Shown here piece after piece: positions 3,942 through 59,159 of a stretch of DNA of 64,000 bases. Made by a program: the position numbers and the translations under genes. The notes beneath the pieces are model-generated. The model did not search any database. It was not told the DNA's origin and worked only from the letters and a program-made list of their open reading frames with translations. Within the stretch, counting starts at the first letter, position 1, and the number at the start of each line of letters is the position of its first letter. Origin of the DNA: Mytilus edulis (lineage: Eukaryota); contig NC_092350.1 of the NCBI RefSeq assembly GCF_963676685.1, forward strand, positions 25,358,001-25,422,000. The letters run 5' to 3'.

Positions 3942-5160
3942 CATTGTAGTTTTTTGTCATGTGTGCAGTGACCGTAGGCTGCTATAATTCACTTCATTGT
4001 AGTTTTTTGTCATGAGTGCAGTGACCGTAGGCTGCTATAATTCACTTCATTGTAGTTTTTTGTCATGTGTGCAGTGACCGTAGGCTGCTATAATTCACTT
4101 CATTGTAGTTTTTTGTCATGTGTGCAGTGACCGTAGGCTGCTATAATTCACTTCATTGTAGTTTTTTGTCATGAGTGCAGTGACCTTAGGCTGCTATAAT
4201 TCACTTCATTGTAGTTTTTTGTCATGTGTGCAGTGACCGTAGGCTGCTATAATTCACTTCATTGTAGTTTTTTGTCATGTGTGCAGTGACCGTAGGCTGC
4301 TATAATTCACTTCATTGTAGTTTTTTGTCATGAGTGCAGTGACCTTAGGCTGCTATAATTCACTTCATTGTAGTTTTTTGTCATGTGTGCAGTGACCGTA
4401 GGCTGCTATAATTCACTTGATTGTAGTTTTTTGTCATGTGTGCAGTGACCGTAGGCTGCTATAATTCACTTCATTGTAGTTTTTTGTCATGTGTGCAGTG
4501 ACCTTAGGCTGCTATAATTCACTTCATTGTAGTTTTTTGTCATGTGTGCAGTGACCGTAGGCTGCTATAATTCACTTCATTGTAGTTTTTTGTCATGTGT
4601 GCAGTGACCTTAGGCTGCTATAGTTCACTTCATTGTAGTTTTTTGTCATGTGTGCAGTGACCGTAGGCTGCTATAACTCACTTCATTGTAGTTTTTTGTC
4701 ATGTGTGCAGTGACCTTAGGCTGCTATAATTCACTTCATTGTAGTTTTTTGTCATGTGTGCAGTGACCGTAGGCTGCTATAATTCACTTCATTGTAGTTT
4801 TTTGTCATGTGTGCAGTGACCGTAGGCTGCTATAATTCACTTCATTGTAGTTTTTTGTCATGTGTGCAGTGGCCGTAGGCTGCTATAATTCACTTCATTG
4901 TAGTTTTTTGTCATGTGTGCAGTGACCGTAGGTGCTATAATTCACTTCATTGTAGTTTTTTGACATGTGTGCAGTGACCGTAGGCTGCTATAATTCACTT
5001 CATTGTAGTTTTTTGTCATGTGTGCAGTGACCGTAGGCTGCTATAATTCACTTCATTGTAGTTTTTTGTCATGTGTGCAGTGACCGTAGGCTGCTATAAT
5101 TCACTTCATTGTAGTTTTTTGTCATGTGTGCAGTGACCGTAGGCTGCTATAATTCACTTC
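3942..5160. repeat. 53-bp minisatellite, about 23 near-identical copies, in IDH1 intron 5
   Basis: Unit cattgtagttttttgtcatgtgtgcagtgaccgtaggctgctataattcactt repeated head-to-tail (period 3942->3995). Confidence 0.97.
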
Positions 5161-5343
5161 AATTTGACTCTGGTTGATTGTTGTTTTATTGGCAATCAGA
5201 CATCATTTCTTTAATGTATATGTAGACATCATTATTCCTCTGAACATGCAGGAAAAGTTACCTAAATGAATCTCATATAATTTAGTTTCAAATAGCTGGT
5301 ATTTGACCTTTTTGTTGTATAAATTTGCCTTTTAAATCATTTA

Positions 5344-5580
<237 letters not shown>

Positions 5581-6351
5581 TTACAATATTTTATATATAT
5601 ATACAATTAGATTATGAGAGCAGACATGCATTATTTTCAAATCACCAGAATCAATGGAAAACGAATCAAAAATAAATGGAGAATGTGTCCCCATGGAAAC
5701 AGATGATGCCCCCGCTTGCATACACAACATTTTAAAGACTCTAACTCAAGAACCATAAAAGTGACTATACTCAAATTTGTATTTCATCTAAGTTTTGTGG
5801 TAATAAGTATTGTATAAAGGTTTCATGATGTTTGGTTGAGGCAAAGTCACGTTGGAAAATGGAAACCAATTTTGGGACATACAGACGGACAAGGGTAAAA
5901 CTTAATGTCCCCCTCTGCTAGAGTTTAGCCTAGATTTTGGTTATTCATCATGTTAATTATGCTCATTCATCAAACAGAACACACCAATACAAATATTTTT
6001 GTCTTAAATATATCTAACTAGGACTAATGTGTCCATAGAACAAGGATGCTCCACTCGCACTATAATTTCTACGTTCAGAGGACCATAAAATTGGGGTCAA
6101 AATTCTAATTTGGCATTAAAATTAGAAATATCATTGTCATAGGTAACTTGTGTACTAAGTTTCAAGTTGATTGTACTTCAACTTCATTAAAAACTACCTT
6201 AACCAAAAAATTTCAACCTTAAAGACGACAGACAGATAAACAGACACACAGACCGAAAAAGTAATGTCCATAAGTTGGGTGTAAAAATATAAAATGAAAG
6301 AGTTTGAACAAGAAATTGTCTTGTAATTGATACTCTAAATCAATGCCTTAC

Positions 6352-7737: not shown

Positions 7738-7786
7738 CAAGGATTTGTATAGTGACATGATTGACATGTCACTATACAAATCCTTG
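7738..7786. repeat. Perfect 22-bp-arm inverted repeat with a 5-nt loop
   Basis: caaggatttgtatagtgacatg-attga-catgtcactatacaaatccttg. Confidence 0.9.
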
Positions 7787-49643: not shown

Positions 49644-51359
49644 AAATTATCATGACATGTTCAAATTAACGGTTTACAAAACGTAACATTTTTCAAAATG
49701 CTAAAGAATTTCTACCATAGGGATAGATTATCTTAGCTGTTGAAATTGCTTCTCTATGCTCTTCCTCTTTGTATTTTTTTTTATTCCAACGACAATGATG
49801 AGTGTTTTGTAGACATACACGTTCTACGGCTGGTATCTATGATGAGTTTGTTAACAGCTACTGACTCGATGGTACTGCTGGTGGAGGTGTATCCCGATGG
49901 TATGACGAGCACAGTAGTCATTTCTGTGTTTTTTTTTAAATACTACGGATTTTTTACATCAGGAATAGATTAACTTAGCTGTGTTGTTTTGTGTGCTGTC
50001 CTATGTTGTTTTACGGGTTAATTTGTATTCTGTTTTAAGCTTGTCGAAATATACTATTGTTTTGTTTGTTTATTTGTGACTTCCTCTGTTTTGAATGTTC
50101 TTGCGTTTATTTTTACTGTATTCCTGTCATGTAAGGGTGTAATCTTAGCCTTATAATCAAAATTGCCATAAAAGTGCGAGATTTAGCTAGCCCAAACAAC
50201 AGGTTCAACTCACCATGTTTTCTACAAATGTCCTGTACCAAGTCAGGAAAATGGCAGTTGTTATCTTATAGTTCGTTTCTGTGTATGTTGCATTGTCGTT
50301 TGGTTTTTTGTTCACTTCAGTGTTTCTGTTGTTATGTTGTTTTCCTCTTATATTTGATTTGTAGCCCTCGGTTTTAGTTTGAAAACCGGATTTTGTTTGT
50401 CTCAATCGATTTATGACTTTTGAACAGCAGTATACTACTGTAACCTTTATTTAGCTATATTTTGTAAAACCTTGCGTAATTTTTAGTCGCAATGCTCTTC
50501 ATCTTAGAACATTGTTTGCCTTTTAAATTTTGTGGTTTCGAGCATCACTGCTGAGCAATTTATAGCCGAATCTTGCGTCTACTGTACAAAAGATTTAGCC
50601 TGGTATATATGATTAGTTTATTTAGCATTCGTTAATCTAATCATATTCAATGAAAAATGTAAGTTAATTTAATTGAAGCAAATGTATGTGCAAACAATTT
50701 GCATTTTGACAAGAAAGAAGTTTTAATCATAGGAATCTACATGTGACACAACTAAGGCAGTATGAGAATACAATCAAAACAGATATTTTGATAAACTTTT
50801 ATCGTTGTTATTTTTTTAAGTGCATGTGTATATAACAAAATATAGGTAAACGTGATCGTTGTCAAGCTATGCTATAATCGAGCACAATTCTCATATTTTG
50901 TACGCAGTAAAACGTTCGTTATGTATAAAGAACGTAATTATTAGAGGCATGATAAGAACAATAAAATAATAGAGTGTGAGATGTTTTCCAAAAAATACAA
51001 GTTGAAATTAGAACATCGGTTTTTAATATATCTGATTTTTGAAAAATACTTTGTAGGAAGCTTAACACACCAACTGCTACTAACGTAAATTCTTTCATTG
51101 ATCTAGAGTATCTGAAATAAAGTGAGTTTTTTTTTTAATTTTAAATCATTCAATATATTTCAGTAGGTTTTGAAAAGGAATTGGAAAATAGGAAATTTCA
51201 ATTACGATAAAATATTTCACCACGAGAATTGCTAAATGATTATGGTTAATTGTTGTAAAAAATATTTCAAATAAACATGACAATTTGTAGGCTACATTTG
51301 ATTTTGTAAAATTTTAATAATAAATCACAGAAAAATAGTCTTTTTTAATTTACATTTAG

Positions 51360-51662
51360 GAGATCCAAGTGACATTATCTATGTCAAGGTGAACTCATCA
51401 GTCCTCTTCACATGTCCGTTATCGTCGAACATAGGTTCCATTATATGGCGTGGACCACCAGATCTAATGTTGTACGGAATAAATGAGAAAGTAAATGACA
51501 AGCTTAAAGAGGATGGTCGCATATCCATTATCAAAGACGAGGCGACAAGACAATACAATTTACATTTTGAAATGTTTTTTGAAAGCGACAAAGGTCTTTA
51601 TAAATGTGATACCATTATGGATGGGAAGACGAAAGAGCATGCATTTGTTTCTATGTTAGCTG
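51360..51662 (+). CDS. Protein B exon 2 (Ig domain 1, V-like)
   Basis: VLFTCP...IIWRG...YNLHF...DKGLYKC; phase 1-1. Confidence 0.88.
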
Positions 51663-52317
51663 GTAACGTATTATTATGATAACAAATCATTACTCAACAA
51701 AATTCAGGAACTGTTTTGTTTCATATTTTTACAAAATAATGACATTTATTTACATAATTATAACAATTATGAAATAAATGATATGCATATATATTACCCA
51801 TTTCAAATAAGCTAAAATGTTTGGTAGAACCATTTCCAAGAGATTTATATAATTTGTTCTAGTGTTTGACTGTTGTACCACTGTTCCAGATGCATGAGGT
51901 GGAGGTTTGTCGCTTACATACTTGTTTAATCCGTCCATGTTTGCTTGTGCCTAGTAAAGTACCTATAATTAAGTTGTTGTCGTTGGTTAATATTTGTCAC
52001 ATTTGTTTTTCGTTAATTGCTTTGTCATAAATCAGTCCATTGGTGTTCTTATCTAAATTATTTTGTGTGTTATCATATGAGAGTATCTTTTATTTCTAGC
52101 TGACTATACAGTATGGGTTTTGCGATGTAGATGGCCAAATTATGACGTATAGTTGTTTAAGTCCGCATCATTTGGTAGATACAAGAACAAATTGACAATC
52201 AGACTAATTATCTTTAGTGATATATAAGGTTTCTTCATTGTATGCAATGCTTTATTGTTGATAATGATTAAAATTCAAACCACATAAATACAAAAAGTAT
52301 CAAAATATTGTTTGCAG

Positions 52318-52593
52318 AAATACCATTCAGCATTATAATAGGCAGAGACAATAGTTTCGAAAGGATAATCGGATTTGAAGGTATGGCCATGGAAGTAAAT
52401 TGTACCGTAATTGGAGGTTTACCAGAACCTACTTTGTCTTTACTACATCGAGGTAGAGTGGTGAATGTAACAAATACAACAATGGTTCAGTATATATTTA
52501 TACCTTCCAAAGAGGACCATATGGGCAATATCACCTGTATAGCAGACAACGGATTCTTCAAACTTCGAACAACATTGCCACTCTTTGTAAAAG
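52318..52593 (+). CDS. Protein B exon 3 (Ig domain 2, C2-like)
   Basis: VNCTVIGGLPEPTL...PSKEDHMGNITCIADN; phase 1-1. Confidence 0.88.
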
Positions 52594-53012
52594 GTTTGTA
52601 TTACAGTTTTGTTTCTATGTAATGATATGTGTAGTTTACCTTGCACAGATTTGTTCAGTTGAAGAAGGAATAAACATTTAGAAAACTTTTCTTCCGTATT
52701 TTGAAAAGTGTAATTAACTTGCATTAGTGTCCGTCTTTATAGCACTACTTATATAATAGTTCTTGAATAACTGGTCATTATCGTGATATATGGACTGCCC
52801 ACAGGACAGTGGTATTGACTAAGATAGTGATAATGACTGAGCCGAAGGCGAGGTCATTATCGCTGTCGCAGTCAATACCACTGTCCTACGGGCTGTCCAT
52901 ATATCACGATAATGACCAGTTAATCAAGAACTATTATGTTTATTTCATTGAGAAACAATGTTTCTAAAAGAATTCATAAATTCAAAGTAACCTCAAGTGT
53001 ATGTATTTATAT

Positions 53013-54104
53013 TAGGGATGTCAAAAGATCTGAAATTTAATACTCGGATACTCGGTCAAGATACTCGAGTACTCGCGAGTACTCGGATGAATCTTAAACG
53101 TCTATTGAAAAATTGAGATTTAAGGTGGGATGCAGTGTTTTTGTTACATATAAAACTAACGTACTACAAACATTGCTCCTCTGTTTCTGTGTCAATTAAG
53201 CAATGAATTACCGACTGCCGTTTTCTACAATAACCTATCATAATAGCAATTATTGTTTGTGTACGTGTTCATGAACCAAATTACAATTAAAAAAAAATAT
53301 TGGTATATAAAGTCCGACAAAGTAGCCAATATATGTATCATCTGTTCATGAGGAGTTGGTATCTTTTATGATAGGACTTGTCCATTAATTTGGCAACAAT
53401 AATATTGGACTTCAAATTACTTTTTTGTGTTGCTCAGTCTTCCCTTTTTGCACCATCGTTTGTCTGATTTTCTTTTTTTTTTAAAGCCATGACGTTGTCA
53501 GTTTATTTTCGACTTTTTTTTTTTTTTAAATTAAACAATTATAGTTAAGTTTAAAATACAGAGTGATTAAATTAATTTAAATGTACATCTCATACCAATC
53601 ACGTTTACATAGAAGTCTTGATTAACAAACAAAGGTGAGTTTAATGGCTTGTGACGAGTTAATTATTAATCCATAAAAGTGTTGATCCGTATACAAACAC
53701 CGTTAAAAATGTCCCTAATCTGTTGCGTAGGGTTCACCGCCGGTCACTTTGATTTTGTTCTTATTTAGAAATATGATCTGGTCAACAATTTCAGACGAAA
53801 GACTGTTTGACTTTCTATTTTTTGTTACAAGTAGTGTACATGAAAACATTCCCTCGGAAGGAAAGGACGTTGCTGATACTACTTTAACAAAAAGTAGCCT
53901 CAGGATAAACATATTTATAATCTTAATTGATTTTATTTGATTACGAAGGGGATATTTCATCGGAACTAAAGTGAGTGGAAATGTGAAGAGAAAATATCTC
54001 AAAATGTATAATAGGCAAACGAGTATCCGAGTACTAAAACTGTACTCGAGTACTCGGCCTTCCGAGCGAGTACCCGAGTACTCGAGTACTCGTTGCCATC
54101 CCTA
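53013..54104 (-). mobile_element. Non-autonomous hAT transposon nested in the Crypton
   Basis: TIRs tagggatgtcaa / ttgccatcccta; perfect 8-bp TSD atttatat (53005-53012, 54105-54112); remnant SATSFPSEGMFS...LSSEIVDQIIFLNKN resembles the hAT C-terminal dimerisation domain; gagtactc subterminal repeats. Confidence 0.92.
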
Positions 54105-54326
54105 ATTTATATAGGAAAGAGTGAAGACCGGGCATAGTTTTAAATGACTATAAGTCAGTGCCATTCATTGAGTGCAATTTTCAGTATATGAAATACAAAA
54201 TAAAATTTTCTATAACTTTATAAGTAACAAAAACATATATGGTTAACAATTCAACAACAACTATAAAATGAAAACAGGAAAATGTTCAACTGGAAAAAAT
54301 CCACATAGTACATGTATAAATTTAGT

Positions 54327-55245
54327 CTTTGCCATGTCTTCATCATTAATCACAGGTTTGTGAGTTACATCACCAAGTCCACTTTTTTTTCAAGTCTATA
54401 CAAACAGCCTCAAACATAGCCTTACTACGGTTAAAATTTTCACCACTGATAATATTGATCTCCCGTCTACGTGGGGGTTCAGTGTAGTACCTGAAAAATA
54501 AATGACACATATAAATACACATACAATTCACTACATTTTGATATTTATCATGATTATAGTATATGTAAAAAGTACATGAATTAAAGCTAGTTATTCAAAC
54601 TCAGTTGCAGTGTACACCCACAAGAATCAGGGCTTTTAAAGCTGACTATGGGGTATGGGATTTGCTCATTGTTGTAAATTTTTGTGTCATTTTGTGGAGA
54701 GTTGTTTCATTGACAATCATACTACATCTTCTTGTTTATATATCTACCCAGAAAATTAAAGGAACGTGCCTGGAAAACATGTAAACAAATTGATTCGGGT
54801 TTGGAATGCATTGATATTTAAAATTATCAACACACAAAGTAACATAATTATCTATAAAAAATGCACTTGCACAAATATAAATAAAGTTCCAGACTGGCAA
54901 ACAGTAAACATTCACAATGCAACTCGAGTGTAACTACCTTTGAATGCCGGCTCGTGTTGACCTCAAGCTTTGGACAGCATACTTTTCTCCATTCTTGTTT
55001 CTTAGTGATGGGTAGAACTTTTCAAGCAGTTGATCAAGAGCATTGTCGGGAAGCAGGTCAATGGCCACGATCGTCTGATAGTTCGCCGCTGCCATGCAAT
55101 AGTCATGAAAAGTCTTGACTGCATATTTGGTGGCTGCTTTGGTGCTCTCGGCATTCTTGTTGCTGAGGAGTTTATCTCTGTCAGCTTCAGAAAGTATTGC
55201 AAAACGTTCATTATAGTTGTCTGCAGTAGCAGACGATTCTTCCAT
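54327..55245 (-). pseudogene. Crypton recombinase N-terminal region, spliced, frameshifted and truncated
   Basis: ERFAILS...STKAATKYAVKTF...LDQLLEKFY..LRNKNGEKY...SLRSTRAGIQR | YYTEPP...INIISGENFNRSKAMFEAVCIDLKK(+1 A)SGLGDVTHKPVINDEDMAK; AG|gtagtt and tttttcag|G splice sites. Confidence 0.78.
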
Positions 55246-55871
55246 TTTCCAAACTGTCAAATGTAAACAAGTCTGAATCGCGATTGCGTTTTATTTCGTT
55301 ACGTCACTCAAATAGACACACCACGCCCCACCGGTCAATATCATGTAAAAGTGATTGTTAATGACCGGTTTTCCGGTCCGTTTTGTTCTGTTAGTGACCG
55401 CTGAAATTAATTACTGAAGAATAATGAATGCCATGTGACCTCTTTTTATCCAATAAGAGAAGCTTATTTTTAACCGATATGAAATAACATGGTGTAATGT
55501 TATAGATATAAATCCGTAATGACCGATCAAAGCCAAAGTGAGACGTAATGTTTTGCCTCGAGATAAAGGATTCGGTGTGACTTTATGATAAACAAAAACA
55601 CACACAAAAAACATTATAAAAAAGATGTTCCGTTTTTTTTATATATGCCAAAGTGAGTGCATGAATTTTTTGTGATGAAGTAATACACAATGTGCATTCT
55701 TAAAATAAAATTTATTAAAGCTACATATTCTTTAAAATGCTTAGCAAAACGTTGCTTGGTACTTGGACATTGCATGACAACAGACATGTGCTACATCAAA
55801 AGTAACATCATCCTAGTATATATAAAAAAAATATATGAAATTAATAAATCAACGTTCGTCGTTTATTGCAG

Positions 55872-56129
55872 TGACACCGAAAGTCCATTTGTATGCTGAA
55901 CCATCACCAAATGTTACAGAAAACAACAACGTGACACTCCAGTGTTTAAATGACACAAGTACTCATCCTACAGATTTTGTTTGGATATTCAACAAACAAG
56001 TCATTGCTGGAGAAATTCATGACCATTTATCTTTGGTAAAAGTGCAACGACAGCAAGCTGGGCTCTATACATGTGAAGTTACAAGCAGTGCAGGAACTGT
56101 TGAAGATAGCTTATATTTAATCGTAAAAT
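55872..56129 (+). CDS. Protein B exon 4 (Ig domain 3)
   Basis: NVTLQC...FVWIFN...VQRQQAGLYTCEV; phase 1-1. Confidence 0.9.
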
Positions 56130-56373
56130 GTGAGTTTTAAACTTATCTTGAACGATAATAATTCCACTATAACAATAAAGTTAACAAAGTGAATTTAAAG
56201 AAAAAATAATGAATATGATTGTCATAAAACGTGTTACTTGTTTTAATTCAAAATACTTTTAAAAATGTACGACATTAGCATTAAAAGCTAATAATTGAAA
56301 ATCAAACAATTCGATTTTGCCCCTTTTCCTATTGAATAAATAATGTTACTTATTGGTCTCCTTTGTTTATTAG

Positions 56374-56655
56374 ATATGCCCACAGTAGCTGATAATTTCA
56401 CAAACTACAAATATGAAGCAGAGCTCGGACAACCGATCAAAATAACATTGATCATTGATAGTTTTCAAAAGCCTGATATTTCATGGACTGTGTCTGCAGG
56501 AGGAAAATTGGGATATTGGACAGTTAGTGCTAAAACAGATCATTTATATTCCGTTTCAACTACAATCCTTCCAGAAGAAGATAGTCACTTAGGAGAATAT
56601 GAAATGAGAATTAGAAATGATGTAGGCACTATCGATGTCGTCATTGAACTTGTTT
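56374..56655 (+). CDS. Protein B exon 5 (Ig domain 4, cysteine-less)
   Basis: GQPIKITLIIDSFQKPDISW...GEYEMRIRNDVG; phase 1-1. Confidence 0.85.
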
Positions 56656-57059
56656 GTAAGAATTTTATATTATAACAGACCAAATCAAAACCGATTTATT
56701 AATAATTTCAAAAGCCGTCAGAAATTGAGAACGGCATTATGCTTAATTCATCCAAGTAACCATAAGTAACCATAATTGACTATTTGATAACACATTGAGT
56801 ATACAATTCATGATGAGTTGATTAAGCATTAATGTTATTTTGAATACTTGCATTACGTTTTTACCATATATAAAAAAAAATAATTCAGTGCTAGTATGCA
56901 ATCATGAAACGTTGAGTGCTTTGTCAATTTCTATAATTTTGAGATTGTTTCATCCTTTGACGAATTGTCATAAAATTGAAATTTTACTAAGAAATTATAT
57001 AACTGTGCTCCTTGTTATGTTTTTACTTTTTTTCAAGCAATGAAATAATATATTATCAG

Positions 57060-57341
57060 CTGGAGTTGTCACTGTAGTACCATATGAAGCAGTTTGCAAT
57101 ACTTCAGAAAGTGTGGAACTGACATGTGTTAACACGGACAAACATTTACAAACAGAATGGACTGCTAAATGGATCCATCAGCTAAATAGAATTTTTATTC
57201 GATCACCCTCCTCGGAAGTGAATGGTAATATTTCTACTTTGACAATAAAGTTCTGCGATTACAAAGATACTGGGACGTACATATGCGAATGGACCTCAGA
57301 CGAGAAAGTGTACAAATCAAGCGCAAAAGTAACTGTTCATG
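57060..57341 (+). CDS. Protein B exon 6 (Ig domain 5)
   Basis: VELTC...KWIH...STLTI...DTGTYIC; phase 1-1. Confidence 0.88.
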
Positions 57342-59159
57342 GTACGGGCATGAATATTATCATATTGTATTTAAAAATTATCTTTCTAAAATACGCCGAT
57401 GTCATCGGTACATGTATATATATCACATTCTATTGTGTTTTTCGTCTTCATTTTCTTGTGTTTATCAAGAATGCTGAATTTAGTAATGTGTGTCTGGTGT
57501 CGAAAAATGCATACTGCAAGCATCTACAGAACAAATACATGGGGTGATCTGATGTCCACATATATTAGACTGACGCCGTGATCAGGATATTTTAAGTGGT
57601 AACTCTTGTTATAACAATATGTTGAACGGAACATCCTCCTTTCGATTTATAATGTGGTATGATGTAATATCAAGTGGTTTGTGATTCTTGATACATAGCT
57701 TATGTATTAATTTAATGACATTCTGAAGAAAAAAACATGCAGTCTTCGCCCTTTATTGAGATCTAATATGATTTGTAACAGACATTTCTTAATTTGGTGC
57801 ATAACTAAGTATTATTTTGAAAACTAAGGTATAAACTCATTTAGTCAAATCAGACCTTAGGTTGAACTTTTCATATCCTCTTAGATCATATAGCTCTTCA
57901 TGTCTCAAAAAAGTAAAATAACAAAAAACTCTGGAAAAGTCCATCACTGACTTTCATTTATTTACGTTCGTATGTTAACTATGAAGGTATAAAGTAATCA
58001 AAGTACTGAAGTACTGAACAGAAAAAAATCACAACTCTATACCTGAAAGTGAGGTTAATGTACAGATATGACTTTGTTCTGGGATAAGTTCGTGCGTAGA
58101 CGATAAATTGATGACGTGGAATTCATTCTCACCGTAATGACTATTATATTGTAGTGATACAAATCAGTATACTCTGGTTTATTGTTATATACTATATTAA
58201 TACTTGTATATAACAGTTACATGTATATATAATTTTCATGCATTTGTATATCATACTATTCTACTATATCAATAGTAGTGCAGTGCAAGTGCATGGTGGA
58301 CATGTCACTATACTGTAATAATTCAATTTTCTTAATAGAATTGATTTGAGTAGAAAAATCTTTAATCATCCATGCTGAGTTATCGTTCCTTAAGATTACA
58401 ACTGACGTTTTTGAGATATTCTTCCGCATGCGTGTGCATATATATTAATGATATTGCACTTGTATGTATATACATATAAAAAACATTTTAATAATATTAA
58501 TTTATCTTCTTTAAAAAGTATTTAATGCGTATTCATTGAAGAAATAAATTTATAACAAGCGATAAAGAATGTTAGTTTGCACTTGATGATATCTACGTTT
58601 TCATCATGTTTATAGATCGGTTAAAAGCCCAAAACAATTATTACGTAATAGAAATCGAGACAATAGCAATACACTGGAAGATCCTCACGGTCATCCGCTG
58701 TAAAAATTATTATTTTCATTTCTAAATGCTGAGTGTTTAGTGGGTAATCATTTGAACGCATTTTAAAAGTTTTTGGTTTGACAAGAATCGCAATCGAACA
58801 CACGGCACTATGATTGGCTTTCAATACGGAGCCTTGGCTCATACCAAACAGCAAGCTATAAAGGGCCCAAAAAACTGTCTACATAAGAGTAAACAGTGGA
58901 ACTCGAATCGAATCTATAGAAGGCAAAGTGAAATACGACGTTGAAGAGTATTCAAAATTCAAAAATTCAGAAATACTGTACCAAATCTAACATGATAAGT
59001 CATCGTTTCCTAGAAGTAGAGACTCCATAGTTTCGACTGATTTTTAACATTTAATAAAAACTATATATTTAAACGCAAAAGAAAAAGAGTTATGTTGTAA
59101 ATTCTTTAAAATTTGCCATTTTATACATGTATCTTATTAACGCGGATATTTCTTTGCAG

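Follow-up and report, generated by a model that had tools for sequence, protein, structure and literature searches.

The element and its ends

The 64,000-nucleotide stretch of Mytilus edulis DNA analysed here (the window; contig NC_092350.1, positions 25,358,001 to 25,422,000) carries on its minus strand, at positions 52749..55487, a copy of a Crypton, a mobile element that codes for a tyrosine recombinase. The copy spans 2739 bp, which includes a nested hAT element and an internal deletion, with intact members of its family being ~2640 bp in length. It is almost certainly a real and ordinary, though defective, copy of a CryptonA (DUF3504) family. This assignment is based on the DUF3504 domain, a structural match to QRICH1 and the KIAA1958- and KCTD1-like names of its relatives. 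A recombinase of a related family in the same genome has 100% identity to a protein recorded under the name Mytilus edulis.

In gene orientation the element begins with a 9-nt terminal motif, here named X (55479..55487, minus strand), and ends with a large hairpin. The latter is an imperfect palindrome of 185 nt with 91-nt arms (52753..52937), in which 80 of the 91 arm positions form Watson-Crick pairs and three more form G-T pairs. Its folding energy is -83.9 kcal/mol (z -20.7) and none of 200 shuffled sequences was equally stable. The palindrome, its arms and its GCC-GAA-GGC apex at 52845 are borne out as described in the sequence-only reading of this DNA. On the plus strand a C-GAA-G loop caps the apex (52844-52846), and 3 bp beneath it lies a tandem GA/GA mismatch. 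The inner arm is followed by a linker of 2 nt (52938..52939) and then by X' (52940..52948, plus strand), an inverted copy of X that is predicted to pair with the far end in a folded strand. Outside the outer arm there are four further end bases (52749..52752, ATAA on the minus strand). The limits first proposed, 52753..55490, are therefore corrected to 52749, 4 nt past the palindrome, and 55487. Likewise, the inverted distal motif is present (52940-52948 against 55479-55487) but is 9 nt long, the last three bases originally counted being host DNA.

The recombinase gene of the window copy consists of exon 1 (54938..55245, minus strand, ATG at 55245), a predicted GT..AG intron of 447 nt (54937-54491, i.e., 54491..54937) and a remnant of exon 2 starting at 54490 (54326..54490). 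Exon 1 codes for an N-terminal helical domain and has 99% identity to three sister copies; the two-exon open reading frame (ORF) noticed in the sequence-only reading is a real one. It had been thought to be cut off before the catalytic residues. The catalytic domain is indeed gone, removed by an internal deletion of ~985 bp whose junction (54326..54330, minus strand) shows 5 nt of microhomology. Upstream of it, the run of A near 54383-54390 already bears a frameshift of 1 nt, with one letter fewer there in all four sequencing runs. The frame is lost after ~140 codons. Exon 1 has no match to DUF3504 or QRICH1 in Pfam and the window exons gave no Crypton match, but exon 2 of the family does match DUF3504.

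Family copies and the recombinase

Exact 18-nt and 25-nt end motifs of the family occur 154 and 163 times in the 1.37-Gb genome, while reversed controls gave 0 matches. As these counts are lower bounds, the family has at least 150 copies. The majority are gene-less derivatives of ~720 bp which retain both ends, and this retention strongly implies that the hairpin and the distal motif are cis-acting sites, as had been proposed from sequence. The two features also occur together, with a hairpin arm found within 1.5 kb in 23 of 30 copies chosen by their far end. The link between hairpin and recombinase holds at other loci as well, as nine of the ten other coding loci of the family have hairpin sequence downstream of their ORF (complete in four that are near full length, remnants in five), with one having none.

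Among these loci are the full-length sister copies (~2.64 kb) that carry a DUF3504/integrase domain with all catalytic residues. One of them, L063 (G000:C7:48.22 Mb), has an uninterrupted two-exon ORF of 488 amino acids as the sole gene in 2638 bp. Its exon 2 scores 31.3 bits for DUF3504 (Pfam cut-off 29.7) and 29.9 bits for Phage_integrase (cut-off 27.1), and the catalytic residues R, K, H, R, H and Y are all present, each being found in 84-97 of 98 aligned proteins. In L061 and L062 the recombinase is frameshifted. It is worth mentioning that these two copies (C7:2.82 and 2.91 Mb) form a pair that is >99.9% identical, 87 kb apart and with differing flanks; L073 and L074 of another family (C4:53.55 and 53.60 Mb, 50 kb apart) are a similar pair with >99.9% identity and differing flanks, which suggests that such elements may hop locally.

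A relative with 42% identity over exon 2 was modelled from its alignment with a pLDDT of 91; the structural comparison refers to this relative and not to the protein of the window family itself. A single-sequence prediction reached a pLDDT of only 33.7. The best match of the model was Cre (Z 19.8, root-mean-square deviation 4.1, 300 residues aligned), followed by the integron integrase IntI (2a3v; Z 15.9, root-mean-square deviation 5.4, 264 aligned), with XerA, XerH, QRICH1 and the Tn1549 integrase next. Protelomerases scored far lower (TelA Z 8.3, TelK Z 6.3). Many bivalve, sea-urchin and cnidarian proteins among the recombinase matches (P0001-P0117) carry KIAA1958-like or KCTD1_15 annotation. 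Most of the aligned sequences have kept the catalytic residues, and these invertebrate proteins are therefore probably Crypton recombinases.

Insertion boundaries and target site

The empty site of the window insertion was identified in read data, where in two of four runs, X7 and X10 (two animals), position 52748 is followed directly by 55488 within single contigs, with nothing duplicated and nothing lost. The insertion is therefore missing from some chromosomes and is probably recent, and the absence of a target site duplication (TSD), already noticed in the sequence-only reading, is confirmed. Contigs of runs X1 and X3 hold the flank plus 30 letters of the element, which fits the occupied allele and is one letter under the bridging threshold. 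A joint skipping exactly 2638 bases, with 3 ambiguous bases, was present at the L063 locus in three of four runs; L063 lies in a repeat and its empty joints therefore represent paralogous empty sites.

The ends are sharp and common to the copies, with the flanks overlapping by 0-2 nt in 30 of 33 cases and by at least 3 nt in the other three. There are no terminal inverted repeats (TIR), long direct repeats or TSD, and the asymmetric inverted motif of 9 nt does not constitute a TIR pair. Insertions are dispersed at unrelated sites, with neither a fixed attI-like platform nor a cassette array.

The target of the window family (family A) is degenerate. C is absent from position +1 (0/56), T is found at +2 in 54/56 sites and A at +3 in 48/56, while on the other side A is found at -8 in 39/44 and T at -9 in 25/44. 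Such a target looks like a symmetric recombinase site, TAW-N6-WTA, that is opened at one edge, the element occupying the right-hand end of the spacer. Comparison with other families is consistent with this, as those beginning with TT favour T at +2 (86/91) and the four beginning with TTAT favour A at -8 (52/59), whereas those beginning with TAA favour A at +2 (8/12) and T at -8 (8/13), the contrasts having Fisher p values of ~1e-6 (+2) and ~1e-5 (-8). Overall, the second base of the element itself recurs at +2 in 94/103 sites, and six families have its mirror image at -8.

Cuts by tyrosine recombinases are usually staggered 5' around a spacer. Their cleavage leaves a 3'-phosphotyrosine and a free 5'-OH (PMC3458562), and because of this chemistry and the usual 5' stagger at that edge, a cut at the edge of the target would fall on the strand that is favoured by the hairpin mismatches described below. 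The target spacers have no homology to the element, so that after two staggered exchanges either the hairpin end would retain host bases or the far end would carry the six bases of the element. When the last 6 nt were compared to the consensus in 23 copies picked by their far end, 14 were exact, seven were one off, one was two off and one three off; in other words, 21 of 23 are within one mismatch, where 0.5 would be expected by chance. The reciprocal product was found 0 times in the genome, against 163 far ends. Together these results favour one exchange resolved by replication, a route that has been demonstrated for integron cassettes (PMC3458562) and that would also give clean excision with copy gain.

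Joined ends and strand bias of the hairpin

When the two ends of the element are joined, X' and the inner arm pair with the outer arm and X to form one long stem. As the four terminal bases stand opposite a linker of 2 nt, the joined ends have an excess of 2 nt, which forms a bulge. Natural joins of this type do occur. In the window family these are a head-to-tail array with a unit of 757 bp (four junctions) and a dimer, and one junction was found in family F453; a natural head-to-tail junction folds as predicted (z -16.7). In the array, X and X' bear a compensating change, which represents one event. The array itself (L151-L154, G000:C10:30252883-30255177) is made up of gene-less copies of 757 bp; its junctions are exact and the unit at either end is truncated. 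It could be a rolling-circle product or the result of unequal crossing-over. Among the joints listed in the read data none was a circle junction, although rare forms are lost from short-read contigs.

C-GNA-G loops and tandem GA pairs are stabilising features of single-stranded DNA. In 13 hairpins the mismatches on the GAA-loop strand comprise 51 purine-purine, seven pyrimidine-pyrimidine and eight mixed ones, and in ten the innermost internal loop is GA/GA or AGA/GAG. Computed folding makes the GAA-loop strand the more stable one in 12 of the 13. The bias tracks the element, with the gene pointing either way. What computed folding alone describes is an imperfect palindrome with differing strands and with extrahelical bases near the putative cut.

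The apex has one orientation in 51 copies, is flipped in one and is degenerate in 12, and Flp-like flipping of the hairpin core was accordingly rejected for the window family. A reading of the joined ends as an ordinary duplex site in which two arms match was also considered, but it fails across families. Two unusual copies are L132, in which the apex has turned into a perfect palindrome with the loop reversed, and L148, where two copies stand in an inverted rearrangement.

Recurrence in other families

For comparison, 48 loci from nine further groups were inspected, a selection from 86 matches to exon 1. Every group has a terminal palindrome of 100-180 nt in most of its loci. In five groups it lies 3' of the gene and in the remaining four 5' of it, with four of the 48 loci (L076, L086, L094, L095) showing no palindrome. 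The same kind of hairpin is present in six of 11 metagenome loci, which belong to two families, one of them with five loci and 40% identity to the query; the five in which none appeared within the sequence covered (L161-L164, L166) are mostly short contigs or have ORFs at contig ends. X' adjoins the arm in 11 of 12 elements tested, where chance matches in the interior amount to at most 0.7 per kb, and the excess of the joined strand is 2 nt in ten of the 11 elements that have X'. The hairpin sequences of these 12 elements can be aligned only within family A, between F453 and F472 and between F214 and F426. No catalytic-domain match was obtained for F214 and F336. The F336 group (L111, L112, L115) has a hairpin without an adjoining X' or a detectable catalytic domain and is possibly chimeric.

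Hairpin ends belonging to other copies or families lie against or inside Crypton copies at L078:2408-2586, L080:2384-2529, L088:2686-2844, L090:3068-3236 and L101:3020-3172; these elements often land inside or next to one another. In family F472 (L073-L075, ~5050-5740 oriented) an 87-bp tandem repeat, partly arm-like, stands by the hairpin.

Other features of the locus

The nested element in the window copy is a non-autonomous hAT-like element of 1092 bp (53013..54104) flanked by an 8-bp TSD (53005-53012 and 54105-54112). It is not present in the sister copies and has a weak match to Dimer_Tnp_hAT (E 0.093, under the Pfam cut-off). It is a high-copy element with subterminal TACTCG repeats, and a relative lies in L076, within the locus of another Crypton family. 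The recombinase intron contains a very high-copy small repeat at approximately 54633-54746 that is fixed in the family, its summed contig depth being ~1e6 compared to ~90 for the exons (run X11).

The Crypton copy falls between two exons with Pfam immunoglobulin (Ig) domains (52272-52619 and 55826-56137), and it therefore most likely sits within an intron of a plus-strand Ig-domain gene. This host gene (51302-57547, plus strand) is multi-exon, with five Ig-like exons by Pfam, mostly under the cut-off. The only other long palindrome in the window (7738-7786) is a perfect one with 22-bp arms and a 5-nt loop.

Proposed mechanism and alternative explanations

The exact ends, the lack of TSD, the intact sister recombinase, X', the strand-biased mismatches, the target opened at its edge and the absence of foreign bases at the ends form the demonstrated basis for a mechanism. 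With a probability of roughly 0.6, the ends of this element, a defective copy of a recently mobile transposon, act as a single strand of DNA that folds, and not as a double-stranded circle, with replication resolving the junction, as with integron attC. The recombinase would cut only the GAA-loop strand (the plus strand of the window), on the 3' side of the TAA in X and of the TAN in the host flank. One strand exchange would link the two element ends, and replication would resolve this into an intact donor, a clean empty site and a circle. The circular strand would then fold, with X' and the hairpin arm acting as a splint across the joined ends to give a duplex site with two extrahelical bases by the cut. 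This folded site would recombine on one strand with a duplex T-A-W-N6-W-T-A target, replication completing the insertion. By such a one-strand route with replication, neither duplication nor spacer homology would be needed. The wider proposal, that the recombinases of animal DUF3504 Cryptons act on a folded single-stranded site made from the joined ends and choose the strand by the GA mismatches, the GNA loop and the 2-nt bulge, is given a slightly better than even chance.

A number of results weigh against the folded-strand reading. No circle, single-stranded intermediate, cleavage or activity was observed in this sequence-based analysis, and exon coverage and the splice joint were absent from the raw RNA run X24, of which 6% was read; runs X15 and X16 gave patchy or intron-spanning contigs that may be DNA. 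The recombinase model is nearer to Cre than to the integron integrase (Z 19.8 against 15.9), and so the protein gives no sign of single-strand specialisation. Seven of the 30 far ends have no hairpin arm inside 1.5 kb. Changes in X or X' were found in nine of 53 dispersed copies, none of them compensatory, the compensating change in the array being a single event. There are also other routes to head-to-tail arrays, namely unequal crossing-over and insertion of a new copy at the end of one already in place. Among the other families, F336 lacks both X' and a detected catalytic domain, F224 has an excess of 1 nt in its joined strand, and F214, F292 and F336 have no clear left half-site. Finally, the 13 hairpins are not independent (F453 and F472 are 78% alike and others share stretches), and the p-values therefore overstate the case.

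The published model of a double-stranded circle with two exchanges (PMC3212892; PMC13565253) is an unlikely alternative to the folded strand. Here the palindrome would serve as inverted protein-binding arrays or as a cruciform that aids synapsis, and the model would suit the symmetric target of two half-sites with a 6-bp spacer, the Cre-like fold and the occurrence of exact end-to-end junctions. However, random target spacers predict host bases or the reciprocal product, neither of which was observed, and a duplex reading explains neither the purine-purine mismatches and GNA loops of one strand nor the constant excess of 2 nt. Resolution of a cruciform to a closed hairpin end in the manner of a protelomerase, the element moving or amplifying as a hairpin-capped linear or rolling-hairpin molecule, appears improbable. 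It would account for a stem (~50-91 bp per arm) far beyond the need of two recombinase monomers, for X' and the host TAN flanking the cruciform base in inverted orientation and for the inverted two-copy rearrangement at L148. Against this stand the low scores of the protelomerases (Z 8.3 and 6.3, Cre having 19.8), an apex that is hardly ever flipped (51 to 1, with 12 degenerate) and multimers that are head-to-tail.

Two further explanations are both highly improbable. The ends might be of the Helentron/Helitron2 type and be moved in trans by an HUH enzyme with the recombinase gene as cargo, as Helentrons resemble the element in having an asymmetric inverted motif, a terminal hairpin, no TSD and head-to-tail arrays. 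Yet the recombinase is the only gene found in coding copies and retains its catalytic residues, the mirrored second half-site 6 bp off co-varies with the element end, and no HUH gene turned up, though no genome-wide search was aimed at it. Alternatively, the hairpin might act as RNA (a transcription end signal, self-silencing double-stranded RNA or a small-RNA precursor) and not as a recombination site, given that it lies 3' of the gene in the window family and that a 91-bp stem would make double-stranded RNA. In four groups, however, it is 5' of the gene, while the polarity of loop and mismatches stays constant with respect to the element; in the window family the strand favoured runs antisense to the mRNA, gene-less copies retain the hairpin and RNA depth across it is just 1-4 reads.

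Significance and comparison with known systems

If the folded-strand reading is true, single-strand tyrosine recombination would extend from bacteria to animals, with a eukaryotic counterpart of integron/CTX recombination that inserts in a scarless, homology-free and replicative manner. It would also explain the abundant orphan hairpin repeats of invertebrate genomes, provide a structural rule for locating Crypton ends and point to a compact integrase that leaves no scar and is undemanding in its choice of target. The question of what the ancestors of ZMYM2-4, QRICH1, KCTD1 and KIAA1958 bound is likewise touched upon. For a test of the mechanism the window family offers precisely defined ends, a recombinase that is intact, a consensus for the target, insertions that are polymorphic and a prediction of the strand and position of the cut. 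Crypton-derived Eulor5/6 repeats are annotated as hairpin-like, so that the palindrome itself may be known to curators. A folded-strand mechanism for Cryptons is apparently undescribed; no description of it or of hairpin ends was found in the article text covered, with Repbase, Dfam, subscription journals, supplements and figures outside this scope. According to a 2026 review, the Crypton mechanism has not been demonstrated and a double-stranded circle is assumed (PMC13565253).

The element is most like animal CryptonA (PMC3212892) and the fungal Glomhopper (PMC13465315), which have a single DUF3504 recombinase gene, its catalytic residues, no TIR or TSD and abundant non-autonomous derivatives sharing both ends. 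Animal Cryptons are reported there to be without terminal repeats (Kojima and Jurka, 2011, PMC3212892), the words "hairpin" and "palindrom" having 0 occurrences in that article, and the boundaries of Glomhopper are described as unresolved (PMC13465315). In the window family, by contrast, both ends are precisely placed and structured, and the target has a defined consensus. CryptonF and CryptonS are likewise recombinase-only, and for CryptonF-1_cRei of Chlamydomonas clean excision together with copy-number gain is described (bioRxiv 10.1101/2022.05.23.493040), as one-strand exchange with replication would yield. These elements have a terminal motif of 4-6 bp matching the target (CACCG/CAYCG), whereas the window family has no flanking direct repeat, only two junction-adjacent bases that match, and a DUF3504-type protein.

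IS200/IS605 and Helitron/Helentron elements share the lack of TSD, the terminal hairpins and a strand-specific circle (for IS200/IS605, see PMC13565253). They differ in having HUH enzymes, 5'-phosphotyrosine and short hairpins, the window element having a tyrosine recombinase. DIRS elements have an internal complementary region (ICR; PMC13465315). It could splint circularisation and resembles the present arrangement in being an internal stretch complementary to both termini. However, the window family has no reverse transcriptase and no pair of inverted terminal repeats, and its complementarity extends over 91 nt at one end and over 9 nt at the other.

The closest parallel to the proposed mechanism would be integron attC x attI recombination (PMC3458562, PMC2727003) and that of CTX phage, where an imperfect palindrome folded from one strand (57-141 bp for the attC type), extrahelical bases, a duplex partner, one exchange and replicative resolution are the likely points in common. 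The window family differs from the integron in that its site is completed only by joining the element ends and the gene lies inside the element; further differences are its degenerate targets and a protein that resembles Cre more closely than IntI.

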